64,000 nt of DNA from a virus (IMGVR_UViG_3300012979_000030:1-64000); one strand, 5' to 3'. Counted from the stretch's first letter, positions 2,073-37,060 are shown. A program made the numbers and translations. Notes: a model not told the origin generated them from the sequence alone.

Positions 2073-2963
2073 TTATTTCTCAGTTTCAATGATACATTTT
2101 AATTCAGAATATTCATTATAATTATTTGGAATACCAAATCTTGTGAAATCATGACCATCAACATTAAAATGAACACATGGAATTGTTGTATCAATATTTC
2201 CAACAACTGTTATAAAATTATCATTTATAGTATGAATATTTTTTATATTCTTTAATTTAGAAATATATTGATTTTTACTAATATTAAAATCAGTATTCAT
2301 AAACCATTCAAATGCACATGAATTTATAAATTGTTCCCTTTGTAATGACATTCTATCATGTAATTCTTTTGAATATATAGCAAACCCAAGTCTTAACCCA
2401 CACCCAACCAATTTATCAAATGATCCAATGATAATATTTTTAGGATTTTGTTTCAATGTTTGTATGGATGATTTCATTTGTTCAATATTCTGATATGTTA
2501 TATCACAAATATTATAATTAAAATTACTGTTATATAAATCCATTGTGTTAAAATTATATTTAAAATAATTTGTAAACCCACAATTTGTATATAAACAATC
2601 ACACTTTATATCAGATAATTTTGGTGTAATAAATTCAGAGTTTATATTGTCATATTTAAATTCTTTTTTTAATGGTTTAATATCCAATGCCTCACAATAA
2701 ACATCCATCATACCCCAAGTAGGAATACACCAACACATTGTTTTTGGTTTAATTGCTAATAAAACATTTTTAATAGCATTTTCACAACCATTTGATAAGA
2801 AGAATGTATTGCTCTCTATGTTAAAATAATTACCAAATTTCTCATATATATAATACATATCTGGATATTGTCTTACATTACAAGATACAACACAATCATT
2901 ACCTGGTTCATTTTGTGTTGACAATCCACATATTTTCTTTACATATTCATTTCTCTTTAACAT
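2073..2963 (-). CDS. PLP-dependent aminotransferase class I/II-like protein (short)
   Basis: SNGCENAI, PTWGMM and GSFDKLVGCGLRLGFA resemble the HisC-type SFSK..G..GLRLG PLP-lysine motif. Confidence 0.65.
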   Translation of the reverse strand: MLKRNEYVKKICGLSTQNEPGNDCVVSCNVRQYPDMYYIYEKFGNYFNIESNTFFLSNGCENAIKNVLLAIKPKTMCWCIPTWGMMDVYCEALDIKPLKKEFKYDNINSEFITPKLSDIKCDCLYTNCGFTNYFKYNFNTMDLYNSNFNYNICDITYQNIEQMKSSIQTLKQNPKNIIIGSFDKLVGCGLRLGFAIYSKELHDRMSLQREQFINSCAFEWFMNTDFNISKNQYISKLKNIKNIHTINDNFITVVGNIDTTIPCVHFNVDGHDFTRFGIPNNYNEYSELKCIIETEK

Positions 2964-3762
2964 TATTAATCCAAAAATCTACAAATTTTTTACCATATAA
3001 TCTACCATCAATGTCACAATCCTTACAACAATTAAATGATTGTCTTTTATTTTCTGATAACATTTTTTCTCTAACAATATCACATTTATTGACAAAATAA
3101 TTTTCTATATGTGTATTCCAAATACTATTTTCTGTTTCAGATTTACACTCCCAATCTGCTTCACATTGTATGTATTTCCCATCAACATCAATTGCAATTT
3201 TATAAAATGGTAAATAACACTCTCTATATATTCTTTCTATTGGTTTATTTAAATAACCACCCCTATTATATAAATTCATTTGTGGATTATTTACATCATG
3301 ATTTCTATACCAAGCATTTGTATTTTGGAATTTGCTTTTAAACCATTGTATATTAGACCAATCATGAACAGATACTTTTATTTGTGCAATTTTTGTTATT
3401 TTTTCCCAAACATCTTTATCCAATAATTTTCCATTAGTAACAACCTGTGGATTAAAAGATTTTAATATATCAACAATTTCATAAAAATTTGGATTGGTTG
3501 ATGGTTCCCCCCATCCAGCAATACAGACAAACCCTTTATAATCAATTTCATTCAATTGTTTACATATCTCTTTAACTGTATGTAATCCCATAAACACTTC
3601 TTTATTTGTTTTCCAACCATGTGATTGAGGACAGAAACTACATTTTAAATTACAAACATTAGAAATATTTAATTCAATTATTCTTAAACAATCTAATTGA
3701 GTTTTTATTTCTATATCTTCAACCAATGATTTCCAAGTATTAAATTGTTGTTGATTTTCCAT
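2947..3762 (-). CDS. Radical SAM protein with SPASM/twitch domain
   Basis: CNLKCSFC, GWGEP, VTNG, C-terminal CYLPF...QCEADW...CKDC. Confidence 0.9.
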   Translation of the reverse strand: MENQQQFNTWKSLVEDIEIKTQLDCLRIIELNISNVCNLKCSFCPQSHGWKTNKEVFMGLHTVKEICKQLNEIDYKGFVCIAGWGEPSTNPNFYEIVDILKSFNPQVVTNGKLLDKDVWEKITKIAQIKVSVHDWSNIQWFKSKFQNTNAWYRNHDVNNPQMNLYNRGGYLNKPIERIYRECYLPFYKIAIDVDGKYIQCEADWECKSETENSIWNTHIENYFVNKCDIVREKMLSENKRQSFNCCKDCDIDGRLYGKKFVDFWINNVKEK

Positions 3763-3763
3763 A

Positions 3764-4777
3764 TTATTTACTATCCTTTATCTCTTCCAACAAATTATGT
3801 AGAACTTTTAATCCATCAATACATGTTTCTGGAAATTTTATATATTGTTGTGCTCTCATTCTTATGAATATATTTGGAACATAATCATTTCCAATACCCT
3901 CTAATCTTATACAATAGTTATCTAATAAGGAGTGCATTTCTTCTGTAAATTCCATACCATTTGTCTTTATTGCAAATATATGTGGTGCAGTATTTTGAAA
4001 TAATGAAAATCCATATTTAATCAAATCATAATGAAAATATTGTGTCATTACTTGTGTAAAACTATTCAATAAATCCTTTCTTTTTAACATTATATCTAAC
4101 AATTCTAAATAATCATAACCCCAATTTATTGCTTTAATTCCAAAATCATTATTTCTACTAATTAAAATACCCATATCATAACCCTCAATTAATGCATGAG
4201 CAGTTCCAACCACATAATCAAATATTGTATAATCTCTTGGAACCATAAACATTCCTTGAACATCATCCAAAACCATAATGTGTTCAATATTATTAATTAC
4301 CAATTGTTTCTTCAATGTTTCATAAAATAATTGTGGTGTTATCTCACCAGAAGATATTTGTGTTCCAATAATATATATAAATGCTTTCTTATATTTTTTA
4401 CACTCTGTTACAATAGTATCAACATTTAATGTGATAATATCTTTATAATGATTTAATATTAGTTTATTATTACATTTATTAACCAATTCTTTTACATTAT
4501 TATGTTCATTCATTGATGTTATTACTAATGTATCTTCATTAACATATTTTTTGAATAAATTTTTAATATGATTTGTAGCACAAGTATCAAACATGATATT
4601 ATGTGTTTTAGATGATATGTTACTAAATGGCATTCTACTAAAATATTCAGATTCCATTTTTTTATATTCTTTATCAGAATATAAAACAGCCTCTTCACTT
4701 CTTGTATTGGAAAGAATAAACATTTCCATATCATTTAATCTTCCTGCATTTAACCACCATTCTACTATATTATTCAT
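3764..4777 (-). CDS. Class V aminotransferase/cysteine desulfurase-fold protein lacking the PLP lysine
   Basis: ITSMNEHNNV, SSGEI, LDDVQG, DYVVGTAHAL (NifS-type SAHK lysine replaced by Ala). Confidence 0.6.
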   Translation of the reverse strand: MNNIVEWWLNAGRLNDMEMFILSNTRSEEAVLYSDKEYKKMESEYFSRMPFSNISSKTHNIMFDTCATNHIKNLFKKYVNEDTLVITSMNEHNNVKELVNKCNNKLILNHYKDIITLNVDTIVTECKKYKKAFIYIIGTQISSGEITPQLFYETLKKQLVINNIEHIMVLDDVQGMFMVPRDYTIFDYVVGTAHALIEGYDMGILISRNNDFGIKAINWGYDYLELLDIMLKRKDLLNSFTQVMTQYFHYDLIKYGFSLFQNTAPHIFAIKTNGMEFTEEMHSLLDNYCIRLEGIGNDYVPNIFIRMRAQQYIKFPETCIDGLKVLHNLLEEIKDSK

Positions 4778-4787
4778 ATTTTATCCT

Positions 4788-5315
4788 TTATTCAACATTA
4801 TTATACATTAATGGATTTTTATATATATCCTTTTCAAAATCTATTATTAATCTTGATTCATTTTCAGAAGATATAGTAAATTCTAAATTTTTAATTCTAT
4901 TTTCACCATTATCCAATACAACTATATCATCATTATCATAAACAACTCTTTTTGATTCTTTATTATCAAATTTTTGTTTTAAAGTATTATATATAATTGC
5001 AATTCGTGTATTTTCTTTGATAATAATTTCATTATTAGAAATATTTGTAATTGGTAATATAATTTCACATTTATTTGATGAATCATCACAATATCTGCAA
5101 CACTCAATAATAATCATTGGATATTCTTTTATATCGTGTTTAACAAATACATTTTCATTTCCACCACAATCTATGTATATACCTGTGTTATATTCAATTG
5201 ATTCATTTGGTTTAATATATATATCTCTATTATTTAAAATTTGTATTTCATCCAAATTAATTGGACTTACAACCAATTTTACAATATCATCTTTATTAAC
5301 AATATTAGTCACCAC
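4788..5315 (-). CDS. dUTPase-fold protein, catalytic motifs degenerate
   Basis: IKPNE...NTGIYI and EIILPITN...IIKENTRIA match the trimeric dUTPase scaffold; RSG and G.ID.DY.G motifs absent. Confidence 0.5.
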   Translation of the reverse strand: MVTNIVNKDDIVKLVVSPINLDEIQILNNRDIYIKPNESIEYNTGIYIDCGGNENVFVKHDIKEYPMIIIECCRYCDDSSNKCEIILPITNISNNEIIIKENTRIAIIYNTLKQKFDNKESKRVVYDNDDIVVLDNGENRIKNLEFTISSENESRLIIDFEKDIYKNPLMYNNVE

Positions 5316-6282
5316 ACATTTCCTCTATCATCTGTCTATCACATAAAACACAATCATCTGTATCAATATATGCTTGATATGAATTCATATGACCACATGG
5401 TAATATTACTGTATTTAATAAACTTGGATCTTCTAAATATTTTGAATGTTCAATGGAAGTGTCTTTATCTCTTACAAACTCAACCATATGTTCATTTTCA
5501 TCATTAAAGTTTCTATATAAATTATCTGCTCTATAATAAATATTAAATAATTTATCCCACATTTCTGGTGATTCTTGCTGTTTAAATTTAATAAGAAAAT
5601 CTAAAAACTTTTGTCTAGTAGGAAAGAAATTTGGCAAAACATTATTCATATCTTGTTTTGTTTTATGTATATATGGATTACCACATTGTTTAAAGAAAAA
5701 TTTTGTATGATATTCTTCCATCATCTTTTCAAAATTAATCTCATCATTTAAATACTTGTCAATTAAATCCCCTGTTAATATTGTTGTAATATTAAATAAA
5801 ATATCTGGATATAATTTATGAATTTGTTTCATATGATATGACCAATTATCTTCCATCTTTTTTGTATGAAATCTACCAATTGTATCATATGATGTTAATA
5901 TCCAAAGATTACCTTTATGACCCTTAAATTTTTCAAGGGTTTCATATAAATCTTTTTGATCACCAATAGTTAATGTTGCATATATCCACACAGTATCTAT
6001 ATATTCATTATTTAACAACCAAACGGTTTTATCTATAAGGTTCATAAACTCTTCTTTTACTTCTTTTGATTTCATTTGACCTTGAAAAAATTCACCACCC
6101 AAATATGATATAGTAGAATATTCTGGATATAATGATAAATCAGATATTTTATCATATGCCATCTTTATAGAATCTATTTTGATTTTATCTGATGTATAAC
6201 AATTATCATGTGCTAAATAACAGAACTTACATCTACTATTACACTCTTGCCAAAGTTCAAATTGCAATTGTTTTCCTCTCAT
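5305..6282 (-). CDS. Radical SAM protein (subfamily A)
   Basis: ELWQECNSRCKFC, GGEFF, TSYD..GRF, C-terminal CGH...CVLCD. Confidence 0.9.
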   Translation of the reverse strand: MRGKQLQFELWQECNSRCKFCYLAHDNCYTSDKIKIDSIKMAYDKISDLSLYPEYSTISYLGGEFFQGQMKSKEVKEEFMNLIDKTVWLLNNEYIDTVWIYATLTIGDQKDLYETLEKFKGHKGNLWILTSYDTIGRFHTKKMEDNWSYHMKQIHKLYPDILFNITTILTGDLIDKYLNDEINFEKMMEEYHTKFFFKQCGNPYIHKTKQDMNNVLPNFFPTRQKFLDFLIKFKQQESPEMWDKLFNIYYRADNLYRNFNDENEHMVEFVRDKDTSIEHSKYLEDPSLLNTVILPCGHMNSYQAYIDTDDCVLCDRQMIEEMCGD

Positions 6283-7223
6283 AAATACACCTCACCATCT
6301 AATAACATTAAATCACATAACATACAGTTATCACAATCAGAATAACATTTATATAATATTGAATGACCACATTTTTCATTTATTATTTCTTTTCCATCCG
6401 TTAACACTGGTTGCTCATAAGGGTCATTAGACCAATTTTTTCCTTTCAAACCTGTATATTTAAAAGAACAAGAATTCTTAGTTGAATGTAAGAATGATTC
6501 ATATACTTCATATCGTTCTTCTTTTAAATACATAATAAACTCCAAGAAATCATCTCTATTAAAGAAAAAATCATCTAATGGTTTTCCAGTTTTAATTGGA
6601 TGTGGATATAATAAACACAACATATTGCCTGGAATTTCATTATTCATAAATTCATTTACATCAAATTTACCATCTTTCCACATATTAATTAAATACTGTG
6701 TTAAAATCATTTGAACCCCAACACAATAATTATATCTATTATGGAAATCATTAATGTTCTTTAATACCAATTTGGAATCTTCTTCACTTTTATATCTATA
6801 TTTAAAATCATATGAAAAATTTACATCAATTTTACCAACACCCACAGCATCAACAATTTTATCAATAACTTTATATAAAAAAGTTGGTTCATATAATCCA
6901 TTTGTTACAGTAGAATATCTGCAACCAGGATTTGTAGATACTTTGAGAATTTTTTCAATGATTATATCAATTAATTCTAAAAATGATTCTTGTAGTTCTT
7001 TGTCTTTAATATAATATAATTCACCACCCAATAAAGATATACCATAACTAAATTTATTCTTCCAATCCAAAACATCAATATTTTTCTTTATCATATCTAA
7101 ATTTCTTAATTGTAATTTTTTAGTAAGAAATTCTCTTTCTTCTCTCAAACAAAAATCACAATTATTACAACAATTTGGCCATACACCATATTGGCAACAA
7201 TGCTGAAAATTATTTTCTATCAT
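6279..7223 (-). CDS. Radical SAM protein (subfamily A)
   Basis: WPNCCNNCDFC, GGELY, VTNG, SYD..YRY, CGH...CMLCD. Confidence 0.9.
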   Translation of the reverse strand: MIENNFQHCCQYGVWPNCCNNCDFCLREEREFLTKKLQLRNLDMIKKNIDVLDWKNKFSYGISLLGGELYYIKDKELQESFLELIDIIIEKILKVSTNPGCRYSTVTNGLYEPTFLYKVIDKIVDAVGVGKIDVNFSYDFKYRYKSEEDSKLVLKNINDFHNRYNYCVGVQMILTQYLINMWKDGKFDVNEFMNNEIPGNMLCLLYPHPIKTGKPLDDFFFNRDDFLEFIMYLKEERYEVYESFLHSTKNSCSFKYTGLKGKNWSNDPYEQPVLTDGKEIINEKCGHSILYKCYSDCDNCMLCDLMLLDGEVYL

Positions 7224-7224
7224 A

Positions 7225-7905
7225 TCATTTTATCCCATCTAAATATAATATTAAATCATTTAATGTATCTAATACTTCTATATCTCTAGCACATGTTCCA
7301 CCATTTTTATATACACAAAATGTTTTTATATAATTTAATTTATCACTATTTTCCACCAAAAATTTAATCAATGATGTTATTTGGGTTTTATTTATTTTAT
7401 TAGGAACTAAATCAAACATTAAACATTTTGCTTGTTTAGAAATTCTAATTATACCACATGATACTGCAATACTTATTATTTCATCTGTATTTAACTCATC
7501 ATCAATACCCAAATATTTTAATAATTCTTTTGAGTGTTCATCATCACAAATTATAACATCTCCATTTGGCATAACCATATAACCAAATATATCTTCTGAT
7601 ATATTAAATGAATCAAATTCTTTATGATACTTATCGGTTCTAAATATTGATATATCTTCTTTGTTTTTTAATGTTCCATTAAAAAATGATAACATTTTTA
7701 TACTATATTCTGTATCATTTAATAACACATCATCAAATACTCTCTTATTCCATTTATTTTGTAATTCTGTTAAATCATTACTTGAAATAGACACAATTAT
7801 TCCATTTTTTGAACAACCATTGCATTTTATAGTATATAATTTATCATCTGAATTATATACATAATCAACATTTTCATTACAAAATGGACAATTTTTAAAA
7901 AACAT
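7225..7905 (-). CDS. Hypothetical protein with N-terminal Lar-like zinc-ribbon
   Basis: KNCPFC...IKCNGC...KWNKR matches the Lar (restriction alleviation) family pattern; C-terminal region unassigned. Confidence 0.5.
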   Translation of the reverse strand: MFFKNCPFCNENVDYVYNSDDKLYTIKCNGCSKNGIIVSISSNDLTELQNKWNKRVFDDVLLNDTEYSIKMLSFFNGTLKNKEDISIFRTDKYHKEFDSFNISEDIFGYMVMPNGDVIICDDEHSKELLKYLGIDDELNTDEIISIAVSCGIIRISKQAKCLMFDLVPNKINKTQITSLIKFLVENSDKLNYIKTFCVYKNGGTCARDIEVLDTLNDLILYLDGIK

Positions 7906-8915
7906 TATTCTCCCTTGGTCAAAAGATATTCATAAATTAATTTTGGTGTAGGACAACCAGTTGAATCCCATTTCATCATACAACAATCACCCCTACAATA
8001 TTTTAAATATGGACAATCTCTACAACCATCATTTAATTTCTTCTCAAATAAAACATTTTCATTGTATATGTCCATATTTTTATTATTTGGGTTTAATATA
8101 TTGAAAAATGGTTTAACTGATGTTACAAAACATTGTGATACATCACCATTTGGTAAAAATGTTAAATTGTTTTCTTGGCAACACCTACTATGCTCATAAT
8201 AATTATTACCACATATTGATTCTTCCATACAATTAAATGTTTCAACATATACACCAACATCCTTTAATTTTTCATACAAAAGATAAGCATCAAACATCCA
8301 TTTATCAACATCTCTGTTTGTTGCTACAATATTACCATTATCATAATCTATCATTGGTTTTAATGGTGGGAATAACCTTTCTAATTCTATTTTTTTAATA
8401 CCCAATCCTAACATTATATCAAATAATGCTCTGGGTGTTAAATTTTCTACCACATCTTTTGTAATAGTAATGACACAAGACAATTCTATACCATTAGATG
8501 TTATTTTTCTAACATTATTAAACCATAATTCTCTTTGTTGTTCATTTGAGAATCTAATAGAATAATCATATGATGTATCCAAATAATCCATTTTTTTGAA
8601 TAAATTTAACCATTCATCTGTTAAATTATATACTAAATTTGATTGTGCATATATTTCAACATTATTATTAATAACATTATCTCTCATGTAATCTATCATA
8701 ATAGATAGTATATTTGGGTCATATAAACCAATCTCTCCACCAAAAAATTCAATTAAATATCTATTACTTGGATTGTTATTTGCCTCATTAATTAGATATG
8801 TAATTGTTTTTTCCAATATATCCATTGACATTGATGTGGTATTTCTGATTGCAAAACAATGTTTGCATTTTAAATTACATTTATTAGTTAAGACAATAGT
8901 TATATGTTTATCCAT
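7905..8915 (-). CDS. Radical SAM/SPASM protein (subfamily C)
   Basis: CNLKCKHC, FFGGE, TSYD..IRF, C-terminal CRDC.YLKYCRGDCC...GCP; ATG at 8915 preferred to GTG at 8927. Confidence 0.9.
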   Translation of the reverse strand: MDKHITIVLTNKCNLKCKHCFAIRNTTSMSMDILEKTITYLINEANNNPSNRYLIEFFGGEIGLYDPNILSIMIDYMRDNVINNNVEIYAQSNLVYNLTDEWLNLFKKMDYLDTSYDYSIRFSNEQQRELWFNNVRKITSNGIELSCVITITKDVVENLTPRALFDIMLGLGIKKIELERLFPPLKPMIDYDNGNIVATNRDVDKWMFDAYLLYEKLKDVGVYVETFNCMEESICGNNYYEHSRCCQENNLTFLPNGDVSQCFVTSVKPFFNILNPNNKNMDIYNENVLFEKKLNDGCRDCPYLKYCRGDCCMMKWDSTGCPTPKLIYEYLLTKGE

Positions 8916-8916
8916 T

Positions 8917-9834
8917 TTATTCACCACACATTTGTTTTACTTGTTTAACTATTTCTAACATCTTATCATTAGAATCCAATAAACCAGTTTCATATTTTAC
9001 ATCCATATCAGTAAAAGATATTGTCATATTAGTTTTTCTTCTATTAGACATTATATATCGTTTACCATTATAATTACAATATATCTTATCAGACCTAACA
9101 TTAGGTGATATAAATGTATCTAAATCTATTTCTCTATTTTCTATTGCAACTTTGTATAAAAATTCTATAAACCTATCTTTTGTAGGAAAGAAATCTGGCA
9201 TATCTTTTGAACATTCTTTCTTATCATAATAATAAAATCCAGAACCGGGTTCAATATAATCAATGTGTGTATTATATTCTTTACAAAAATCTGTTATACT
9301 AAACTCACCATTCAATACTGACTCAATAAAGAATCCAGAAACAATTGTTTCTGTATGCAATCTTAATTTTGGAAATACATAATTTAATAATTTCATATTA
9401 GATTCCCACATATGTTTTCTATCACTAGTATGAAATCTATATTTCAAATCATATGATGTACAAAGTAAAACATTTTCCAATACACCTTTATCATTTAAAT
9501 AATTTAAAAATGGTATCAAATGTTTATTCATATCAAACAATAAAGCAGTTGTTATATACAATTTATTAATTTTATTATTTTTAATTTTGTCAATACATTT
9601 ATCAAATAATCTATAAAACAATTGTCTTACATTCTTATTATCCAATTGACTATCAAAAAACTCACCACCAATAAATCCTATTTCATTATACTCATTAACT
9701 TCTGTATCATCTAACTTATCAATTACAAAATTTAATGATTCAATTTTATCTAAATCTTTTTGTCCTTTATTAAAGCAGAATTTACAACCATTTGAACAAT
9801 CTTTCCATAATTCATATTGTATAAAGTTATTCAT
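8917..9834 (-). CDS. Radical SAM protein (subfamily A, lacks C-terminal Cys cluster)
   Basis: ELWKDCSNGCKFC, GGEFF, TSYD..YRF; ATG at 9834 after GGAG. Confidence 0.88.
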   Translation of the reverse strand: MNNFIQYELWKDCSNGCKFCFNKGQKDLDKIESLNFVIDKLDDTEVNEYNEIGFIGGEFFDSQLDNKNVRQLFYRLFDKCIDKIKNNKINKLYITTALLFDMNKHLIPFLNYLNDKGVLENVLLCTSYDLKYRFHTSDRKHMWESNMKLLNYVFPKLRLHTETIVSGFFIESVLNGEFSITDFCKEYNTHIDYIEPGSGFYYYDKKECSKDMPDFFPTKDRFIEFLYKVAIENREIDLDTFISPNVRSDKIYCNYNGKRYIMSNRRKTNMTISFTDMDVKYETGLLDSNDKMLEIVKQVKQMCGE

Positions 9835-9835
9835 C

Positions 9836-10717
9836 TTATTCTCCAAACAATTTAGATAATTCTATTAAATCACATATAAAACATCTGTTATCACTAGAAT
9901 ATAATTTAAAATTTTGTGAATGACCACATTCCATATTATCACATGATACAAATGTTAAAGATTGTTTTTTATTATCATACTTGTATAATAATTTATCCTG
10001 TTTTAAACTAAAATTATCAACATATCTATTAAAATAATTTGGTATTAATTCATTAACTTTAATTAAGGTTGAAAATATTTGTTCTCTTGTTGCTGATAAT
10101 TCTTCTGTATAAACAATATATGGTATAAGATTTATATCACAATTATATTCATCACAAAAATCTTTTGGATTAAATACATTGTTTAAAATTTTTTCACATG
10201 TTTGTTTTGTTAATATTGTGTTGACTACTATATTACATTTTGGATATGTATTTTTTACATATTTAAGATTTGTCAAAAATAAGGTTTCTTTTTCTTTTGT
10301 TGAGAATCTACCTTCTAAGTCATATGATGTTGTAAATTTTAACCTATCCCATAAGTTATCATAATCAATAAGAGATAATAATTTATTTAAAATTCCCATA
10401 TTGTTATACAATAAATTTGTATTGATGTATAATAAATCAATACTGTTGCTGTTCATTTTATCAACAATTTTCTCAAAAAAATTTACGTAATCATTAATAA
10501 TCAAAAGGTTAGATTCATCAAAAATTTCACCACCAACTAATAAAACATGACTGCCATTTACATAATCATTAGAATCTAAAAATTCTAACACACAATTTAA
10601 AGATTTTATTTTATTCAATGGAGACAGAATAATTCCATTCTTTCTTTGAAAACAAAATTTACAATTATTATTACAATTATCCCAAAGTAAAAATTCATAA
10701 ACAGGTTTACATACCAT
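9836..10717 (-). CDS. Radical SAM protein (subfamily A)
   Basis: LWDNCNNNCKFC, GGEIF, TSYDLEGRF, CGH...CFICD; ATG at 10717 after AAGGAG. Confidence 0.9.
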   Translation of the reverse strand: MVCKPVYEFLLWDNCNNNCKFCFQRKNGIILSPLNKIKSLNCVLEFLDSNDYVNGSHVLLVGGEIFDESNLLIINDYVNFFEKIVDKMNSNSIDLLYINTNLLYNNMGILNKLLSLIDYDNLWDRLKFTTSYDLEGRFSTKEKETLFLTNLKYVKNTYPKCNIVVNTILTKQTCEKILNNVFNPKDFCDEYNCDINLIPYIVYTEELSATREQIFSTLIKVNELIPNYFNRYVDNFSLKQDKLLYKYDNKKQSLTFVSCDNMECGHSQNFKLYSSDNRCFICDLIELSKLFGE

Positions 10718-10736
10718 ATATTTCTCCTTTTGAGAT

Positions 10737-10765
10737 ATTATATAATAATTTAATATTAATGACAA
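10737..10765 (-). promoter_or_regulatory. sigma70-like promoter
   Basis: TTGTCA-17 nt-TATAAT on the minus strand, ~20 nt upstream of the 10717 start. Confidence 0.6.
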
Positions 10766-10779: not shown

Positions 10780-11346
10780 CTATTCTGTATATGGATCTTT
10801 TAAAGAAGCAGTATATTCAACAGGGATGACTCTAATTTTATTATGTAACTTATCCATAATAATAGTAAAGATATCATTGACATCTTTAGCATCAATTCTG
10901 TCTGTTTTTTCATCACCAATTGTATGGTATAATGAAGTGGGTAGTGATAATACTCCACCTGTATATATTAGATATTTCTTTGATGAATATTGACTTATAG
11001 AAAATTTTAAATTTTCTATACAAAACCCAACCATATTATTAATCAAATGATATAATTCTCCATCTAATATTTGTTGATTCAATTTATTATAAACACCAAT
11101 ATTCTTTAAAAAGTTCTCAAAATCACTATTAACATTACTTGTTTCTTTTCTTTCAACCTTATTATTGGTTAAATAAAATCTTATTAGTGCATTTTTAGAA
11201 CCCGGAATTTTAAAATTTCCTGTATCATATGATTTAAAACATGCATCCATACTATCATATTTACTACCAACATTTTGACAATTATTATTGATAAAAGCAA
11301 GGATTTTATCTGTAATATTTTTATATGTTATATTTCCACTTATCAT
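10780..11346 (-). CDS. Hypothetical protein, paralog of 11346-11954 without the Ser/Cys tail
   Basis: ITYKNITDKI..FINNNCQN vs ITYKDLADKI..LIINKCDN; other shared blocks (KYLIY/KYVIY). Confidence 0.6.
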   Translation of the reverse strand: MISGNITYKNITDKILAFINNNCQNVGSKYDSMDACFKSYDTGNFKIPGSKNALIRFYLTNNKVERKETSNVNSDFENFLKNIGVYNKLNQQILDGELYHLINNMVGFCIENLKFSISQYSSKKYLIYTGGVLSLPTSLYHTIGDEKTDRIDAKDVNDIFTIIMDKLHNKIRVIPVEYTASLKDPYTE

Positions 11347-11954
11347 TATATTTCCATATATGCTATAAACATTGAACTACTTGATGAACAAGAACTACTT
11401 GATGAACTTGAACTACTTGATGAACATGTATAAGTAATAGTTGTTGCGGGATAAAATACTTTTGATGTTGAGTTAATTGCATTTAATAATGAATTAACAT
11501 CTGTTTCTATTTGTGCTTTTGTATAATTCTTATCTTTTAATGCAGTTTGAACACTTGTATAATTAGTTGCACTTGCATTATAAATTACATATTTTTCACC
11601 CCTAAAACTTGATCCAACCAAAACCATCTTTGCAGATAAAAAGGATGAGATATTTGCATAAAAATTCATCATACCTTTAAATGTAATAACTTCATTTTCT
11701 TTTGATTTTATACCCCTTGAAGATAAAAATGAATCAAGTTGTGTTTTAACAACTGATGCACTTATAGGAACAAGCTTATTATCATTAATAGTTAATGTAC
11801 ATTTTGTTTTACTTGTTGAAGATATTGTATATGTTTGACCATTTATAGGAATAGTTTTATCAATATTATCACATTTATTGATTATTAATTCATATATTTT
11901 ATCTGCCAAATCTTTATATGTTATCTTCTTCCCTACTTCTATTGTCATCTTCAT
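11346..11954 (-). CDS. Hypothetical protein with C-terminal Cys/poly-Ser tail (candidate rSAM substrate)
   Basis: Ends TYTC-S11-C-S5-MFIAYMEI; lies inside the rSAM cluster. Confidence 0.6.
   Translation of the reverse strand: MKMTIEVGKKITYKDLADKIYELIINKCDNIDKTIPINGQTYTISSTSKTKCTLTINDNKLVPISASVVKTQLDSFLSSRGIKSKENEVITFKGMMNFYANISSFLSAKMVLVGSSFRGEKYVIYNASATNYTSVQTALKDKNYTKAQIETDVNSLLNAINSTSKVFYPATTITYTCSSSSSSSSSSSCSSSSSMFIAYMEI
11373..11426 (-). repeat. 3 x 18-bp tandem repeat encoding (C/S)SSSSS
   Basis: Minus-strand units TGTTCATCAAGTAGTTCA / AGTTCATCAAGTAGTTCT / TGTTCATCAAGTAGTTCA. Confidence 0.9.
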
Positions 11955-12639: not shown

Positions 12640-13578
12640 TTATTTTATGTTATTACAAATATTTTTTATACACATTAATGTGTTTTTTAAATTATAACAA
12701 TCATATGTATCATCCTTTAAATCATGAACTCTTTTCATACATCCATTACAAATATTAAAAAACTCACACATATAACATTCATTCTTTATTATTTTATACT
12801 GATATGAATCATATATATAATCATCATCAAGGGATGGACATGTTGACATATTACCATCTGGACCCATACATTTTATATTTTTATAACATGTTCTGTTTGA
12901 TAATGGACATGTTGTATCTCTATTATTAAAGAAATTTATTAAATTTAAACAATTTGATTCATATTTATATAAGTCATCAGTTTCAAATAATTGTAAGTAT
13001 ATATCATACATTTTATCCAATGGATAGTGATACCCTTGTCTCCCAGATTTAACGGCAGGATTTAATTTACATTCTGTTCCAAGTTTTTTTGCCAATTTAA
13101 CATTATCAATTGCATATCCAGCATTTTCATTTGTAACAACACTAACAAATGTCAATTTTTCATTATATAATTCCTCAAATTTATAAAATATTTTTAAAAA
13201 ATCATCTTCTGTAAATAATGTATAATTTGGTTTTATCCGTCCATTTCCATATTGAAAAGATGTGCATATACCAATCTCGGGTTGTCTAAACAAATCATCC
13301 CATTTATCTGTGTTAATATACCAATCCCATAAGTTTGTTGTAAAAGATATAATACAATTTAGTTTTTCACTTCTTATGTGTTCAATAATGTCATAATAGA
13401 ATTGTGGTTTCATCATTAATGGATCACCACCATTAACAATTATACTTTTTGTTTCTGGAAATTCTTTTAAAAAACTAATAACCTTATCCGACTCCAATAC
13501 TTTATTTGGAATCAAATTAGAAGAACAAAATGAACAATGGAAATTACATGCTCTTGTTGGTTTAATTACTAATTCCAT
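12640..13578 (-). CDS. Radical SAM/SPASM protein
   Basis: KPTRACNFHCSFC, NGGDPL, TTNL, C-terminal CYMC...ICNGC. Confidence 0.9.
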   Translation of the reverse strand: MELVIKPTRACNFHCSFCSSNLIPNKVLESDKVISFLKEFPETKSIIVNGGDPLMMKPQFYYDIIEHIRSEKLNCIISFTTNLWDWYINTDKWDDLFRQPEIGICTSFQYGNGRIKPNYTLFTEDDFLKIFYKFEELYNEKLTFVSVVTNENAGYAIDNVKLAKKLGTECKLNPAVKSGRQGYHYPLDKMYDIYLQLFETDDLYKYESNCLNLINFFNNRDTTCPLSNRTCYKNIKCMGPDGNMSTCPSLDDDYIYDSYQYKIIKNECYMCEFFNICNGCMKRVHDLKDDTYDCYNLKNTLMCIKNICNNIK

Positions 13579-14548
13579 TTTTTAACTCCAAATATTTATA
13601 TATTGATAACATTCCTGGACAACCTGTGTTATCCCATTGTAATTGACAACAATCACCATTACATTGTTTAAAATATTTACAACACAAACAACCAATATTT
13701 TTATTATCTTCAAAATTATATAGCATTTTTTTCTTGTTTTCATCAATGGTTTTTAATGTTCCATATGAAATATTTGCCATATTTGGACAACTAGAGATTG
13801 TTCCATTAGGATTTATGGTTGTAACAGTTCTCATACATTGTCTTCTCCTACAACCAATCAAATTCCCCTTAATCCCTTCTTTAACTCCACTAAATAATGG
13901 TATATAAAATTTTGTATTCTCATATATTTTAAATGCATCTAATAACCATTTATCTAAATCAGAATTGTTTGGTCTCACATCATTTACATCTGCTCTACCA
14001 GTTGATGTAATTCTTTCAAAATTAAAATATTTGAGTCCAAGATTTGAAAACATATCAAAAATATAATTTGGGTTTAAATCTTTTATAAGTTGTTTTGTCA
14101 AACAAACAATTGGTTGAACTTCTATACCAATAGATTTGAGTTTTCTAACATTATTCAACCACAATTCTTCTTGTTCTTCATTAAACCTTATTTTATAATC
14201 CCAAGATGTTTTTATAAATGATTTATGCATCTTTTTAAAAATTTGAATATGTTTATCTGTCAATTCATAAACAAGATTTGTTGTTATTTCCCACATTATA
14301 TTTGTTTCATTTACTGATTCAATAATATATAAAATTTTATCTAAATCATATAGGGTAGGTTCTCCACCATGTAATGTGACATTTATATCATCATTTGGGT
14401 GTTTGTTGCAAAATTCTTTTAACCAGATTAATACATCTTCCAAAACATCTTCTTTCATATGATTATGATTCATCATTATTTCATTATAACAATGCTCACA
14501 TTTAAGTTGACACCCATTAGTTAATTTAAGATATATATTATATTCCAT
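13562..14548 (-). CDS. Radical SAM/SPASM protein (subfamily C)
   Basis: CQLKCEHC, HGGEP, TSWD..IRF, CLCCKYFKQCNGDCC...GCP. Confidence 0.92.
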   Translation of the reverse strand: MEYNIYLKLTNGCQLKCEHCYNEIMMNHNHMKEDVLEDVLIWLKEFCNKHPNDDINVTLHGGEPTLYDLDKILYIIESVNETNIMWEITTNLVYELTDKHIQIFKKMHKSFIKTSWDYKIRFNEEQEELWLNNVRKLKSIGIEVQPIVCLTKQLIKDLNPNYIFDMFSNLGLKYFNFERITSTGRADVNDVRPNNSDLDKWLLDAFKIYENTKFYIPLFSGVKEGIKGNLIGCRRRQCMRTVTTINPNGTISSCPNMANISYGTLKTIDENKKKMLYNFEDNKNIGCLCCKYFKQCNGDCCQLQWDNTGCPGMLSIYKYLELKNGISN

Positions 14549-15437
14549 TTTTTATACCCGTGCAAATGTTACATGTTTTTAATTTACCTGCAAGTGATTC
14601 ATTTCTCAAATTCATTGCTTTTTCAGAAAACCATAGTTCATCCAATGGAGTTTCCATAATATTACCAATAACAAACTCATCATCCACTCCCCACCTACAC
14701 AAATTTACATCACCATTTGTCTTTATATGACATAAATTATACATACCATAGCATGGTATATTTCCACACAATCCATTAATAATTCTTGGATTATTTGTTA
14801 AATCTATGTATTTGTTTATAACTTTATCAGCATGAGAATATATCTCAGTAAAATAATAATTATCAACAATTTTTGACATTTTATCAACAAAATCATCTTG
14901 TTCTGTATTATTGTAGAAGATTGATGATGCAGATATTTCTGTTGATGATATTATATCATTTCTATATTTAATAAGCAATTTTATATTTTCTATTATTTTA
15001 TCAAATGTATCAACACCTGTTGCTTTTAAGTGTGTTTCTTTATTATACCCATTTAATGAAAATTTAATTGATTGTATGTTATTTTTTACCAAATATTTTA
15101 ATTCATCTATTCTTGTTCCATTAGTTGTTATAAACAACTTTGAATTACAACCATTAAGTATTATATCAATTATTTCACAAAATTGTGGATGTAAAGTTCC
15201 CTCACCCATATGAAATAAACCAATTTCTTTTATATTTAATCTTCTAATTTCTTCAATTGTTTTATTAACCACATCAATAGGCATAAACTTCTTCAAACCT
15301 TTTAATGTTGGAACAACACAATAATAACATTTATGATTGCAAACACCAGATAATTCCAATTTTACTGCTGTTGGTAAATTACTACAAGATAAATCAATAC
15401 TTGTTGATGCTATTTTAATTCTATCAATGATGCTCAT
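14538..15437 (-). CDS. Radical SAM protein with twitch/SPASM domain
   Basis: CNHKCYYC, MGEGTLHP, TTNG, PC...GDVNLC...IGNI...W...CNIC. Confidence 0.9.
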   Translation of the reverse strand: MSIIDRIKIASTSIDLSCSNLPTAVKLELSGVCNHKCYYCVVPTLKGLKKFMPIDVVNKTIEEIRRLNIKEIGLFHMGEGTLHPQFCEIIDIILNGCNSKLFITTNGTRIDELKYLVKNNIQSIKFSLNGYNKETHLKATGVDTFDKIIENIKLLIKYRNDIISSTEISASSIFYNNTEQDDFVDKMSKIVDNYYFTEIYSHADKVINKYIDLTNNPRIINGLCGNIPCYGMYNLCHIKTNGDVNLCRWGVDDEFVIGNIMETPLDELWFSEKAMNLRNESLAGKLKTCNICTGIKNGI

Positions 15438-15441: not shown

Positions 15442-16479
15442 TTATAAAATTGTTATGTGTGGGTTTACTAATTTATTAATTAAATCTTTATTCACTGGTG
15501 GATTGTAATATAAATCATATGTTCCCAAATATGTTGTATTCATCATAATACAAACGGGTATTGTAGGAACATTTGTATATAATGCCGATAATATTCTTTT
15601 ATTAGAATAGTATGGTCTCAAAACACCATCTGGTGTTAATTTCAACTGTATAACTCTCTTTAATCCATTCTCAACACAATCTTTAACCAACAGACTTGCT
15701 TTTGTAAAATTTGCATTTGCATGACAATAATATGCTTTGTCAGTCAAATCATATGTTAAAACCTCGGTTTCATAAACCATTTGTTTTAAATATTCTCGTG
15801 GCATATTTTTATATAAATATGTAGTTGTAAAATTTGGATTATCTTTATATGTAAATTCACCAAACTTTTCTTCTGTTAATTTACTCCATTTTACTGTTTT
15901 TGGTAAATATTGGAATTCAACCTTTGGTTTTATATATTGTTCAGATGGATATTTAAATATTTGATGTTTTACTGTTGCCATATCCATATTATATAATGTT
16001 ACTTTTGCTTTTACAGTTTCACCATCATCTATATGCTTTTTAATTGGTGCAGGAATAACAAGGGTATCTGTTTGTGCATAATATCTTATACCATCATATC
16101 TTTCGTGTATTAATAAATTATAGGTTTCTTCATCCATTGGATCTTCTGTAAAGATTTTGATATTTTGAAAATCTTTAAGTATTTCATTATTAAAATCATA
16201 ATAATCATTTGTTGATATTGAAGTAATATATGATAAATCATTTGTTTCCAATGGTATATCTTCTGTAATTATTTTTGGTGAATATTCTGATAAACCAAGT
16301 TTTTCAACAATATACCTATCATATGCAGGCAATGAAGGGTTTTCACCAAGTTCATCTTCAATGTCCCCTCGTTCTCTTTCAACAATTGGTTGATATATAT
16401 CATCACCAACATCATATTCAATGTCATCATTATATCTGATATCTTCTTTTAAAATATCCAAACTCAAAGCATTATGCAT
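15442..16479 (-). CDS. Hypothetical protein, possible degenerate ParB/Srx-like C-terminal domain
   Basis: LVKDCVENGLKRVI...NKRILSALYTNVPTIPVCI resembles the ParB-N pattern. Confidence 0.4.
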   Translation of the reverse strand: MHNALSLDILKEDIRYNDDIEYDVGDDIYQPIVERERGDIEDELGENPSLPAYDRYIVEKLGLSEYSPKIITEDIPLETNDLSYITSISTNDYYDFNNEILKDFQNIKIFTEDPMDEETYNLLIHERYDGIRYYAQTDTLVIPAPIKKHIDDGETVKAKVTLYNMDMATVKHQIFKYPSEQYIKPKVEFQYLPKTVKWSKLTEEKFGEFTYKDNPNFTTTYLYKNMPREYLKQMVYETEVLTYDLTDKAYYCHANANFTKASLLVKDCVENGLKRVIQLKLTPDGVLRPYYSNKRILSALYTNVPTIPVCIMMNTTYLGTYDLYYNPPVNKDLINKLVNPHITIL

Positions 16480-16480: not shown

Positions 16481-17209
16481 TTAATTTACCCCATCAACAT
16501 ATTCTGCTAAACCTTTACTAAATTCTTTCCATCCATCACCACTACTCATCCCATATAATAATGCTGTAAATGGTGTATATTTAGATACACATTCAAATAA
16601 TTTATTGTTTGATTCTGTAAATATATCATCATAAAAATGTGGTTTAATAGATATATCATTATTATCAAATAATAACATAAAACACTCATTTTTAATCAAG
16701 TTACAAATATTACTATTAAATGGTTTACCACAAATATGTGTTACATCACCAAAAGTAAATTTATCTTCTTCAACCATATCTAACCTTGATAATGGATATA
16801 ATGGTAATGAAAAACAAAATGTTAAAACATCTATAATTAATTTTTCATTATCTTCTATAAATTTCTTCATTTCATCATCTGTCAATATACAATCATTTGT
16901 ATTATATGATGTATTATAATACATTCCCAAGATTTTTAACCAAGTATCATCTAATTCAACAATTTGATATTCAATATCACCAATTAAATATTGCTTTAAC
17001 ATATCACACTTAAAATCATAATCTGATTTTGTAAAATCAAGTTTTATATTTTTTAAATCTGTATTTCTTAAATAAATTATAGATATATTTGCATATTGAG
17101 ACATTAATATGCCATCAAACTTAATATCAGACATATCAACAATTAAATGTTCATCCATTGGTTTGTTTAATATTTCATCACTATATGGTAATCCACTATT
17201 TAACATCAT
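16481..17209 (-). CDS. Hypothetical protein translationally coupled to the Cys/His-tail protein
   Basis: TAATG stop/start overlap at 17209 with AGGAGA SD supplied by the last codons of the upstream gene. Confidence 0.65.
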   Translation of the reverse strand: MMLNSGLPYSDEILNKPMDEHLIVDMSDIKFDGILMSQYANISIIYLRNTDLKNIKLDFTKSDYDFKCDMLKQYLIGDIEYQIVELDDTWLKILGMYYNTSYNTNDCILTDDEMKKFIEDNEKLIIDVLTFCFSLPLYPLSRLDMVEEDKFTFGDVTHICGKPFNSNICNLIKNECFMLLFDNNDISIKPHFYDDIFTESNNKLFECVSKYTPFTALLYGMSSGDGWKEFSKGLAEYVDGVN

Positions 17210-17928
17210 TATCTCCTTGATCTTGTTCCATAACAATTACCATGACAATTTAAATGGCATGTATATAAATTGTATGTCAATGTGTTTGCAGATATACAAG
17301 TATTATACCATGTATTATAACAATTTGTAATTGTTGTGTTCATATTTCCAGCTGTTATTTGGGCATTTGTTGTTAGGGCACTACTTGGATTCAATGTTAT
17401 TGAGGTTGTACCACTCCTTTCCCAAGAAGTTGATGAACCACCTAATGCATTTGATGCTGTTGGAACTGCCGGGAAAGATGCATTTATAACACATGTCCCT
17501 GAAACTGAACCTTTATTAATTAATGAACCACCATTTGGATCAGATGAGTTTGCATCATCGTTTACTGTTGTAAATTGTCTATGATACCATGTTGATGTAA
17601 ATTTTCTAATCTTATTTAATGCTCGTGTCATTGTTAACATCTGAGACCAAAGTGATGATGCAGATATAGTAGTATCAGATAATGTTAAAGATGGAACACT
17701 TTTGGACAACATTTGATTTGATGGTAATGCTGCTGGATTAGTAAAACCAACACTCCCAACATTATTTGAACCAATATTTGCTGTTCCAGAAAATTTTGGA
17801 ACATTACCACTATGGTATGTTGCTTGATTATATGCTTTTGTTAATACATTTGTATTAAAATCAGTTATTGCACCAACTATATTATTTGCTGTAACTTTTT
17901 GTATTTTTTGATTTTGTGTTACACCCAT
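17209..17928 (-). CDS. Thr/Asn/Ser-rich virion-like protein with C-terminal CHxxCHxxC..RSRR tail (candidate rSAM substrate)
   Basis: Ends YTCHLNCHGNCYGTRSRR*; body composition unlike the surrounding enzymes. Confidence 0.65.
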   Translation of the reverse strand: MGVTQNQKIQKVTANNIVGAITDFNTNVLTKAYNQATYHSGNVPKFSGTANIGSNNVGSVGFTNPAALPSNQMLSKSVPSLTLSDTTISASSLWSQMLTMTRALNKIRKFTSTWYHRQFTTVNDDANSSDPNGGSLINKGSVSGTCVINASFPAVPTASNALGGSSTSWERSGTTSITLNPSSALTTNAQITAGNMNTTITNCYNTWYNTCISANTLTYNLYTCHLNCHGNCYGTRSRR

Positions 17929-17955: not shown

Positions 17956-18840
17956 TTATTTATTTTTAATAATATCATATAAACCAGAGCAATAAGGTTT
18001 TGAAAATGTTTTTAAATGCTCTGCTTTACACTTATCAAAAAATTCACATAAACAACAATTTTTTAAATAATCTTTTCTTTCTTTAACAATATACTTTTCC
18101 CACTCATTGATTGATTCAAACTCAACTAAATGTTCTATTGAATCTTTATATTCAACTGTCCCATAATTTCCATTTGGCAATATAAATACAAACCCACTTT
18201 GTGTTGGATTGTATTCATCATCATTTAAATATTTCATATTTTCTATATCAAAACAATAGTCACCCTTATTATATTCATTTATAATATTCTTTAAAAATAT
18301 AATAAAATCTTTTGTTGATATATCATACTTATTACAATATATTGACGGGTTATACTCCAAAAAATAAACGTTTTTACCAAGCAAATTATAAAATTCTAAC
18401 ACACTATTAATATCTTTTTCTAATAATGATGGAAGAACAACAGATGTTATTGAACAATCAATGTTTTTTATTTTTTTTAAAACATATTCATAATTGCTTC
18501 TTTCCTCATTTAATGATACATTTATATGAATATTATTATTTTTACAATAATCTATAATCCAATCATTTGTCAAATTTGTTGTTACATTTATTTCCCATTT
18601 TCTAATTAAATATATTAGATTATCAAGATATTTTTTATCTAATAAACTTATTTCACCACCATATATTGAAATATGTGAAAAATCATAACCATTGTGTAAT
18701 AATTCAGCAATTTTTTCATCAAGTGTTTTTAATGATAATATGGTTTTATCATTTTTCATATTACCCAAATAACAATAATCACAATTCATATTACAATGAT
18801 ATAATGGTATAATAGATAAATTAAGATTTTTTGTATTCAT
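17956..18840 (-). CDS. Radical SAM protein with SPASM-like C-terminus
   Basis: PLYHCNMNCDYC, YGGEI, TTNL, CCLCEFFDKCKAEH...CSG. Confidence 0.9.
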   Translation of the reverse strand: MNTKNLNLSIIPLYHCNMNCDYCYLGNMKNDKTILSLKTLDEKIAELLHNGYDFSHISIYGGEISLLDKKYLDNLIYLIRKWEINVTTNLTNDWIIDYCKNNNIHINVSLNEERSNYEYVLKKIKNIDCSITSVVLPSLLEKDINSVLEFYNLLGKNVYFLEYNPSIYCNKYDISTKDFIIFLKNIINEYNKGDYCFDIENMKYLNDDEYNPTQSGFVFILPNGNYGTVEYKDSIEHLVEFESINEWEKYIVKERKDYLKNCCLCEFFDKCKAEHLKTFSKPYCSGLYDIIKNK

Positions 18841-30801: not shown

Positions 30802-30804
30802 TAT

Positions 30805-31938
30805 CTATTCCACATATGTTATTGTTAATTTATTATTATTTACAACATTTTGAACAAATGCTGTTGATGCAACACTTTGTGATGAATCCGATAAATCACT
30901 AACAGTAGGAACATTTGGACTTGAAGTAAATGTTTTTGTTCCATCAATTGTTTCATTACCACTTTTATGAACTATATTTGTTTCATCAATAGTAATATTA
31001 TCAATCAATCCATCAACTTCATCTTTTGTATATGTTGTTAGTTGGTCTGCTTTTGTTGCTATATTTGATGTATTTGATGCAATTTGTTCAAGTGTTGATG
31101 ATGTAACACCACTGTTAACGGCGGCAAGTTGTTCAGATGTTAAGGTTGCCTGCTTATTTCCCAATTCTGTGTTTATATCTGTAATATCTTTATTTAATTC
31201 AGTAATATCACCATTTATATTTGTTATACTATTATTAATTCCAGAAATATCACCATTTATACCCAAAATGCTTGCATTGATATTTGTTATACTATTTGTA
31301 TTTGATGTTATTTGTGATTGTAGTTGTGTTTCAGCCTCTGTTCTTGCTGATGTTTCTTCACTTAATTTTGTTAATACCCAACCTGCTGTTGCTATTTCAT
31401 TATCTTTTGCATCTGCTTTTGTGGTTGGTGCATATGCAATTATATCACCATTATCATAAAATCTTATTTCTAATGGAATTGGTGTAAAAACCCCATTATT
31501 ACTTGCTATTTCTAATTTAGCAGAATTATACAATTTTGTATCATCTATACCTCTTACAAATCCCAAAACACCAACAGAAATATCATTTTTATCTGTAATG
31601 TCAATTTTTCCAAAATATGGATTATCTGATACTGTGTCATTAATTCCAGTGGATGTACTATTTAATGCAACAACACCAACACCATTATCTGTTCCTCTAA
31701 ATGTTTTTAATCCAGTAATTGATTCATTACCTGCTTTATGTACAACCATATTTTCAATTGGTAATGTATTAACAACTTCTCTCAATTTTTTTGGTGTTAT
31801 ATATGTATAATCATCAATTCCTTGACTAACCATTTCTGATGTTGCTATTTTTGATACACCATCTGTTGTTTCAGTTGCTTTTAAATTGTTTTGTAAATCA
31901 ACCCAATTGTTTCCACTATTATACTTAATTTTTGGCAT
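30805..31938 (-). CDS. Tail fibre protein with coiled-coil segment
   Basis: Two VHK.GNE.I.G.KTF repeats; heptad ITNINASILGINGDISGINNSITNINGDI. Confidence 0.7.
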   Translation of the reverse strand: MPKIKYNSGNNWVDLQNNLKATETTDGVSKIATSEMVSQGIDDYTYITPKKLREVVNTLPIENMVVHKAGNESITGLKTFRGTDNGVGVVALNSTSTGINDTVSDNPYFGKIDITDKNDISVGVLGFVRGIDDTKLYNSAKLEIASNNGVFTPIPLEIRFYDNGDIIAYAPTTKADAKDNEIATAGWVLTKLSEETSARTEAETQLQSQITSNTNSITNINASILGINGDISGINNSITNINGDITELNKDITDINTELGNKQATLTSEQLAAVNSGVTSSTLEQIASNTSNIATKADQLTTYTKDEVDGLIDNITIDETNIVHKSGNETIDGTKTFTSSPNVPTVSDLSDSSQSVASTAFVQNVVNNNKLTITYVE

Positions 31939-34780: not shown

Positions 34781-34782
34781 CA

Positions 34783-35832: not shown

Positions 35833-35840
35833 GAGAAATT

Positions 35841-37049: not shown

Positions 37050-37060
37050 AGGGACAAAAA

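Follow-up and report, generated by a model that had tools for sequence, protein, structure and literature searches.

In a 64,000-nucleotide stretch of viral DNA (IMGVR_UViG_3300012979_000030:1-64000, here the window) we analysed a 239-aa protein, below called the tail protein, and the genes for radical S-adenosylmethionine (rSAM) enzymes that surround it. The protein is a member of a large, unnamed phage family without a Pfam or NCBIfam model, whose proteins carry a C-terminal repeat of cysteine and aromatic residues. As the genes of this family almost always adjoin rSAM and tail-fibre genes, phages probably modify a virion protein by radical chemistry. We consider it fairly probable that the tail protein is a virion protein, likely associated with the fibre, and that the rSAM/SPASM enzymes encoded with it cross-link its exposed repeat tail at the C terminus. 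An earlier note on this DNA had proposed a structural-type protein with a Cys/His tail as the target of rSAM enzymes, and this central idea is supported by a near-constant linkage to rSAM genes and by a homologue detected in virions.

Results

The tail protein and its predicted fold

The open reading frame (ORF) that the note had placed at 17209-17928 is present, on the minus strand, with the following parts:

17928..17209, minus strand: tail protein, 239 aa, member of the unnamed phage family, with a predicted folded alpha/beta body and a C-terminal repeat tail
17212..17259, minus strand: universal tail, residues 224-239, CHLN-CHGN-CYGT-RSRR, three C-aromatic-x-(N/S/T) units and the R-x-R-R C terminus
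17296..17325, minus strand: clade-specific Cys/aromatic block, residues 202-211, NCYNTWYNTC, invariant in 22 close relatives

The C-terminal end reads NCYNTWYNTC…YTCHLNCHGNCYGTRSRR, as in the earlier note in all letters except one, since the first block is NCYNTWYNTC and not TCYNTWYNTC. Cysteines are at positions 146, 203, 211, 224, 228 and 232, and histidines at 39, 116, 225 and 229. The composition is indeed rich in Thr, Asn, Ser and Gly, as had been claimed: these four residues make up 46.9% of the protein against a mean of 27.7% for the 106.5-kb genome of the virus (26.8% G+C), the top value among all its proteins of at least 100 aa, and the next-highest values include large proteins of the tail-fibre region.

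AlphaFold2, run with an alignment of 22 relatives, predicted an alpha/beta domain (predicted local distance difference test (pLDDT) 80.5, predicted template modelling score 0.77). In this model the NCYNTWYNTC block lies within a confidently predicted helix (residues 193-214) and residues 216-225 form a strand; pLDDT is below 50 at residues 230-232 and 234-239, and the CHGNC stretch is also of low confidence. A tail that is of low confidence or disordered beyond the confident fold would be accessible, which we count in favour of an exposed substrate. No convincing match to the model was found among solved structures (best Foldseek E against the PDB 1.1, best VIA-align Z 6.2), and the TssK and baseplate rows of the fold search (Z about 4.5-4.8) were at noise level. 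Matches in BFVD were uncharacterised phage proteins only, including an entry from Agrobacterium phage Atu_ph07. The body is thus predicted to be a globular alpha/beta domain without a recognised fold, and not a fibre. Searches of Pfam and NCBIfam with the tail protein gave no match; phrog_35144 matched weakly and at the C terminus only, and the nearest named cluster in the ESM Atlas was the PF27846 family, 'modification target Cys-rich repeat' (score 0.76), which we take as a lead only.

Conservation is concentrated in the last 16 residues

A word-based search yielded 21 relatives with 42-98% identity, and a profile search of 1.84 billion cluster representatives yielded 133 at E ≤ 0.001. Whole proteins of the family are 125-360 aa long, with bodies of 110-280 aa. 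Residues invariant among the close relatives include C203, C211, C224, H225, C228, R236, R238 and R239. The third Cys of the CHxxCHxxC motif, C232, is replaced by Trp in 9 of 22 aligned close sequences (about 40%), and so is not the fixed feature that it had been taken for. When 58 members are aligned broadly, full invariance is limited to C224, R238 and R239, with H225, C228, H229 and R236 close to it, and the mean column identity of the body is 25%. The invariant set of this alignment omits the NCYNTWYNTC block, which is missing from most of the wider family and is therefore a feature of the clade, not of the family. The note had given this block as part of the protein's ending; it sits in a helix of the predicted folded domain, and the last 16 residues alone are universal.

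Among the 138 members found by profile, the repeat unit, C-[H/Y]-x-[N/S], occurs in 1-5 copies, most often three. Position 2 is aromatic in every one of the 375 units (H 349, Y 24, F 1, W 1), position 4 is N (174) or S (152) in 326, and an Arg follows the last Cys at i+4 in 85 of the 138 members. Of the 153 family sequences collected, 138 have the R-x-R-R C terminus. Across the family it is encoded with the full set of six Arg codons, so its conservation acts at the protein level. For the same reason we rejected the possibility that R-x-R-R is kept merely as a Shine-Dalgarno sequence (AGGAGA here) for the next gene. In two variants (P0148 and P0139) about 5-10 CHxx units are present and the R-x-R-R end is absent (for example …CHSECHSNCHSDCHSDCHGDCYGD); expansion of the repeat and loss of the basic end are thus both possible. 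Short tail proteins (≤142 aa) mostly occur as tandem gene pairs. One 330-aa sequence, P0092, joins the first ~74 residues of the tail family to a C-terminal rSAM/SPASM part lacking CxxxCxxC; we set it aside as evidence of fusion, since a deletion or a chimera from assembly is its likelier origin. A search of the literature outside subscription journals found no published description of the family.

We searched IMG/VR and prokaryote genomes with a DNA pattern encoding C-H-x-x-C-H-x-x-C-H-x-x-R-x-R-R-stop. More than 120 IMG/VR contigs matched among the matches listed, and 131 of 131 tail ORFs (from the pattern contigs and earlier loci) matched the family hidden Markov model (HMM). Judged by its recurrence in homologous ORFs on these contigs, the tail is no chance pattern.

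Tail genes are linked to rSAM and tail-fibre genes

Linkage was counted in 113 viral loci with a tail gene, found among the matches listed via the tail pattern alone, with any ORF containing CxxxCxxC taken as rSAM-like. The nearest rSAM-like gene was most commonly directly upstream (position -1, 59 loci) and was at +1 in a further 17, so that it was adjacent in 76 of the 113 loci, and it lay within four genes in 102. The 11 loci where such an ORF was not found were mostly short or ended near the tail gene. In all, rSAM-like genes accounted for 265 of the 1226 genes in these loci. Homologues thus do not routinely lack rSAM neighbours, a point on which the earlier note had made its proposal depend. 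The same rSAM linkage was seen for relatives that the profile search, not the pattern, had brought up. In close relatives on metagenome contigs of 102 kb and 30 kb, 6-7 rSAM genes lie upstream and the same two ORFs follow downstream, and at least six rSAM genes are near a distant relative (E 3e-29). The sample names of the close relatives' metagenomes suggest gut cohorts.

Clustering of all neighbour genes, together with annotation of one complete example (locus L053), gave a conserved module in the following order:

1: large structural protein (phrog_358, DUF4815)
2: small virion structural protein (phrog_473)
3: tail-fibre-like protein of variable length, p473 (phrog_22593/6427/19602)
4: cupin (not in every locus)
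5: rSAM/SPASM enzyme (phrog_1802)
6: tail protein
7: p238 (phrog_20767)
8: p369
9: further rSAM genes, and ~185-aa proteins where Ralstonia phage RSF1 has genes annotated as 2-oxoglutarate (2OG)-Fe(II) oxygenases

The fibre-like gene is directly before the tail gene or within four genes of it in at least 62 loci; its L053 member has a weak Peptidase_G2/IMC match below the cut-off. No protease is conserved among the clustered neighbours or in the annotated L053. The composition of the module varies with the tail protein: short tail proteins co-occur with rSAM_B and p366b, and mid and long ones with rSAM_A, p369 and cupin.

A homologue is present in virions of a cultured phage

The module is found in Agrobacterium phage Atu_ph07, Sinorhizobium phage Phosso, Ralstonia phages RSF1 and RSL2, Burkholderia phages FLC6, FLC8 and S13, and Pseudomonas phage pPa_SNUABM_DT01. 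A tblastn search of cultured phages with the window protein or with a typical marine member gave no matches, and these phages were reached by tblastn only via the Atu_ph07 member and its p238 neighbour. In the records of Atu_ph07 and RSF1 the tail protein is annotated as hypothetical, and the cupin, rSAM and 2OG genes of RSF1, FLC6 and S13 are given as genes of unknown function (PMC8066314, PMC11898562).

The Atu_ph07 family member, AUZ94952.1 (locus L127:12001-12891), ends in …CHSSCHASCHNSRSRR. Its computed mass of 31.89 kDa is that of gp170 in the published virion proteome (PMC6102473 Table S5). AUZ94958 (66.07 kDa) and AUZ94959 (21.66 kDa) match gp176 and gp177 in the same table, which fixes the numbering and identifies AUZ94952.1 as gp170. 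In purified Atu_ph07 virions gp170 was detected with 8 unique peptides and 35% coverage (PMC6102473 Table S5), so a family member is a real virion protein. The virion role proposed in the earlier note is borne out for this homologue and is predicted for the window phage. The rSAM and p238 neighbours (about gp168-171) are unlisted in the rows of Table S5 covering those numbers (PMC6102473).

The same table places gp170 in gel bands 1-9, with its peak abundance in band 1; Atu_ph07 proteins of ~30 kDa reach their maximum in band 8 and those of 87-137 kDa theirs in bands 1-2 (PMC6102473 Table S5). Atu_ph07 gp170 runs far above its monomer size after sodium dodecyl sulfate (SDS) and 95 °C, a behaviour that fits covalent cross-linking and does not prove it.

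The rSAM array and other genes of the window

In the window the tail gene is flanked on both sides by a long array on the same strand:

25070..25975, minus strand: tail-fibre-like protein whose C-terminal part is the p473 family (phrog_6427, phrog_22593, phrog_19602, tail fiber protein; module HMM E 1.5e-45)
18821..24000, minus strand: five further consecutive rSAM genes, of 371, 381, 366, 354 and 265 aa, four with CxxCx5Cx3C SPASM-type motifs
17956..18840, minus strand: rSAM gene directly upstream of the tail protein (-1), 294 aa (Pfam Radical_SAM 43.1 bits; module HMM rSAM_A E 3e-40)
16481..17209, minus strand: p238-family protein (phrog_20767), likely ATG at 17209
15442..16479, minus strand: ORF at the conserved +2 position, 345 aa (301-322-aa ORFs at the same position in loci L001 and L003)
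12640..15437, minus strand: three more rSAM genes, that at 14538-15437 with a Pfam SPASM domain
2947..10765, minus strand: distal array of six rSAM genes (2947-3762, 5305-6282, 6279-7223, 7905-8927, 8917-9846, 9836-10765)
3764-4777, 4788-5315 and 7225-7905, minus strand: non-rSAM ORFs between the distal rSAM genes, 337, 175 and 226 aa

In total 15 rSAM genes, all on the minus strand, lie in 2947-24000. The position directly downstream of six consecutive rSAM genes, given in the earlier note, was confirmed at 17956-24000 by motif, Pfam and module HMM. All six upstream genes carry CxxxCxxC and are matched by Pfam Radical_SAM and/or Fer4_12, above the gathering score in five; the remaining one (21059-22159) has from Pfam a sub-threshold Fer4_12 match alone. 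Against the custom rSAM module HMM the six gave E values of 2e-26 to 2e-58, and the SPASM-type motif in four of them was assigned by eye. The module HMMs found in the window the fibre-like gene, 14 rSAM_A-type genes, the tail protein and p238, and no cupin or p369. Tail-fibre-type genes upstream of the array extend over 25070-31938.

Two adjacent rSAM paralogues (18821-21066, minus strand) share long identical blocks, such as …WGGELFFDALPD(T/S)LFDEYKLLVDNFR…, which indicates a recent tandem duplication within the array. A 202-aa ORF in the array (11346-11954, minus strand) has the C terminus C-S11-C-S5-MFIAYMEI; the tail-protein HMM gave no match to it, and it may be a second, different substrate. 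At the distal end are an aminotransferase-like ORF (2073-2963, minus strand; Pfam Aminotran_1_2, 21.9 bits) and the 337-aa ORF at 3764-4777 (minus strand). Not every enzyme of the array need act on the tail protein.

Genes of the BspA-type leucine-rich-repeat/DUF285 ('Mycoplasma') kind are present at 33581-39589 (plus strand). Together with the relative in a Bacilli metagenome-assembled genome (MAG) described below and the gut-like sample names, they hint at a low-G+C Bacillota host. A scan for sigma-70 promoters found 136 sites against 137 expected, and TATAAATA 11 times against 32 expected; such counts are uninformative in DNA this AT-rich.

p238 is coupled to the tail protein

The p238 gene was found in 101 loci, in 77 of which it occupies the +1 position. 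In the window its likely ATG at 17209 overlaps the stop codon of the tail protein as TAATG (17207-17211), and the two proteins are therefore translationally coupled; the TTG start at 17236 in the ORF list is probably wrong. Such stop/start overlap is common across the family, and the last two Arg codons of the tail protein (AGG AGA) form a Shine-Dalgarno-like AGGAG. The AlphaFold2 model of p238 (pLDDT 84.9) gave no match in a fold search (best Z 3.3). The possibility that p238 or p369 are degenerate rSAM proteins was rejected, with profile-profile probabilities of ≤1.2%. Prediction of a complex between the tail protein and p238 scored 0.49, against 0.00 for the best of three controls. The three runs were at odds (0.00, 0.49 and 0.53), and partner pLDDT was at least 70. 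Among scores ≤0.60, the mark was reached by 7 of 80 solved complexes and by both of the passing mismatches of 110. This support is weak, and we left it out of account.

The array enzymes resemble SPASM maturases

The rSAM enzymes of the array are 265-381 aa long with CxxxCxxC starting near residue 10-30, and thus have no N-terminal RRE domain. A typical -1 rSAM matched several NCBIfam models over the full length but weakly: the PapB ranthipeptide maturase (E 1.4e-13), the anaerobic sulfatase maturase (E 4e-12), DynA (E 3.9e-11) and the CXXX-repeat-target maturase TIGR04115 (E 1.4e-8). By sequence, the -1-type enzymes form an undescribed subfamily of SPASM-type maturases for proteins or peptides.

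The CXXX-repeat systems (TIGR04115, PF27846) are alike in having a target with tandem Cys-every-fourth units (three here) and an adjoining SPASM-type rSAM enzyme. Scores against TIGR04115 were nevertheless 36.4 bits (window 7905-8927) and 34.6 bits (the -1 rSAM of L053), far from its cut-off of 350. The targets of Cys-repeat-target systems, PapB and SCIFF are short leader-core peptides, whereas here the target would be a folded protein of 125-360 aa found in virions; the present system also differs from the Cys-repeat-target systems in a maturase without RRE, an aromatic residue always after the Cys, the invariant R-x-R-R and a phage host. Neither ranthipeptide nor SCIFF membership applies, as PapB scored 26-51 bits (cut-off 340) and the SCIFF maturase 28 bits (cut-off 425), and as the target is a 239-aa folded protein instead of a short precursor.

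Triceptides contain three-residue cyclophanes formed on aromatic-X-X motifs, with His examples in HaaB/HAA, YhhB/HNR and HtkB/HTK (PMC11499958). The repeat unit contains H/Y-x-N/S, formally an aromatic-X2-X3 motif, in repeated form; this is a likeness of sequence only. The interchange of His, Tyr, Phe and Trp is as expected for cyclophane donors, but the conserved Cys before each aromatic residue has no role in triceptides. Models of YhhB, XyeB, FxsB, AmcB and GrrM matched the array enzymes weakly, below their cut-offs.

SPASM enzymes that act on whole proteins, namely the anaerobic sulfatase-maturating enzyme (anSME) and QhpD (with its substrate QhpC), resemble the array enzymes in size, N-terminal CxxxCxxC, C-terminal SPASM part and lack of an RRE. 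C-x-x-x-R, common here too, lacks the Pro/Ala of the anSME motif C/S-x-P/A-x-R; TIGR03942 scored 46-53 bits against a cut-off of 349, and no sulfatase domain was found. The Hxs (His-Xaa-Ser) system does not fit either, with HxsB at ≤51 bits (cut-off 370) and HxsC at ≤26 bits (cut-off 268). By these comparisons the system would work like rSAM/SPASM systems with Cys-repeat targets, yet it falls outside every named family for which membership could be tested.

In T4-type phages gp37 and then gp38 are fibre-tip accessory genes. By analogy, the tail protein may be compared with T4 gp38, likewise a small virion protein rich in Gly, Ser, Thr and Asn that is encoded just behind a fibre gene, but tblastn and fold searches found no sequence or fold similarity between the tail protein and such genes.

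The module occurs in bacterial chromosomes

In 596 billion bases of prokaryote genomes the DNA pattern gave 47 matches, 39 of them family members and 8 by chance, which sets the empirical false-positive rate of the pattern at 8/47. Nearly all of the 39 loci have the same neighbours, including rSAM genes. About 26 are in Bdellovibrionota, some on contigs of 1.3-2.8 Mb, and some Bdellovibrionota chromosomes (among the GTDB genome contigs L129-L175, for example L151, L149 and L172) hold the whole module, with tail protein, rSAM_A/B, p238, p369 and oxygenase-like genes. The distribution in this phylum is patchy, as 9 of 301 sampled genomes match. The closest genomic relative of the window clade is a member of that clade in a Bacilli MAG (L162), located behind six rSAM genes (E 8e-65).

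Discussion

We propose that the C-terminal tail of the tail protein is the substrate of the co-encoded rSAM/SPASM enzymes, which have no N-terminal RRE and would work on the entire protein in the way of anSME or QhpD. Oxidative cross-links, within or between chains, would be placed in each repeat. These might be thioethers from the Cys sulfur to an Asn/Ser carbon, for which Cys-to-carbon links in ranthipeptides, SCIFF and QhpC are a precedent, or cyclophanes from the His/Tyr ring to the C-beta of Asn/Ser; as each unit offers both a Cys and a His/Tyr-x-Asn/Ser, the sequence does not decide between the two. Modification might give a tip that is rigid, resistant to proteases or held by a covalent anchor. 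The body might in addition serve as a leader, as the note had proposed. The translationally coupled ~240-aa neighbour is probably a non-virion chaperone or presenter. The extra Cys/aromatic block of the window clade and its six upstream rSAM paralogues may belong together, although this is speculation. More doubtful is the proposal that interchain cross-links made by the rSAM enzymes, tail to tail or tail to fibre, lock the protein into a virion assembly stable to SDS and heat; such links would explain the abundance of the 32-kDa Atu_ph07 homologue at the top of the gel.

Several points weigh against cross-linking of the tail by these enzymes. The evidence for the enzyme-substrate pairing is all genomic, and no rSAM enzyme here reaches the curated NCBIfam cut-off of any characterised maturase family. 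In the RSF1 record ORF071 is annotated as hypothetical only, and it is the neighbour ORF067 that is called a virion structural protein. The gp170 at the top of the gel could also be ordinary SDS-resistant oligomers. Finally, tails rich in Cys and His can simply bind metals, and phage fibres use His-bound metals. An unmodified tail binding a metal or Fe-S cluster, as a fibre-tip metal site or as a phage Fe-S or electron carrier serving the rSAM enzymes, would agree with the universal Cys, His and Arg residues; a metal-binding tip had been put forward in the earlier note too, and rSAM-rich phages have been noted to carry Fe-S assembly genes (PMC5332604). We nonetheless regard it as unlikely, since there can be 1 to 5 units, or in variants as many as about 10, His is swapped for Tyr, Phe and Trp and never for Asp, Glu or Cys, the body is hypervariable with a structural-type composition, tandem gene pairs occur, and the homologue, not the enzymes, appears among the virion proteins in the rows covering their numbers. 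Judging from the sequences, a repeated modification motif accounts better than a fixed metal site for the variable copy number and the His/Tyr exchange.

The genome has 15 rSAM genes and one family member, so most array enzymes would need other sites or substrates. They might all act elsewhere, on the fibre protein, on other proteins of the array such as the poly-Ser-tailed 202-aa ORF, or on a small molecule, with the tail protein as a syntenic structural neighbour; the ORF resembling pyridoxal-phosphate enzymes (Aminotran_1_2) in the array and the cupin and oxygenase-type genes of other loci (annotated 2OG-Fe(II) oxygenases in RSF1) point in this direction. However, the adjacency of rSAM and tail genes outlasts wide divergence and changes of gene order and holds in bacterial chromosomes, tail-protein and rSAM subfamilies co-vary, and what is invariant in the protein coincides exactly with its repeat tail, which makes this explanation improbable. 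Ultra-conserved cores with poorly conserved bodies are typical of cofactor-type precursors, and the tail protein has both. It could therefore be a long-leader precursor of a RiPP (a peptide that is ribosomally synthesized and then modified post-translationally) or cofactor, whose 16-residue tail is modified, cut and released as for pyrroloquinoline quinone or mycofactocin. That is very improbable, as the module has no conserved protease, the homologue is found in virions with 35% coverage in the proteome table, and the body is a confidently predicted folded domain of 110-280 aa.

Arrays of rSAM genes in large phages have been reported without explanation, and a T4-like marine genome with 12 rSAM genes is known (PMC5332604). 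Such arrays now gain a definite target that is open to testing, a conserved virion protein whose repeat tail is RiPP-like, and the test is easily made in cultured phages for which virion proteomics exist. The new elements are the class of substrate, its spread across phages and its association with fibre genes. If the proposal is true, whole folded proteins that combine a C-aromatic-x-N/S repeat with an RxRR terminus would be a new class of SPASM substrate. If the tail is modified, phages would apply RiPP-type radical chemistry to their own particle, probably to the host-recognition apparatus, and interchain cross-linking, if it occurs, would be a radical-chemistry counterpart of capsid chainmail, common to many phages and reused by some Bdellovibrionota.

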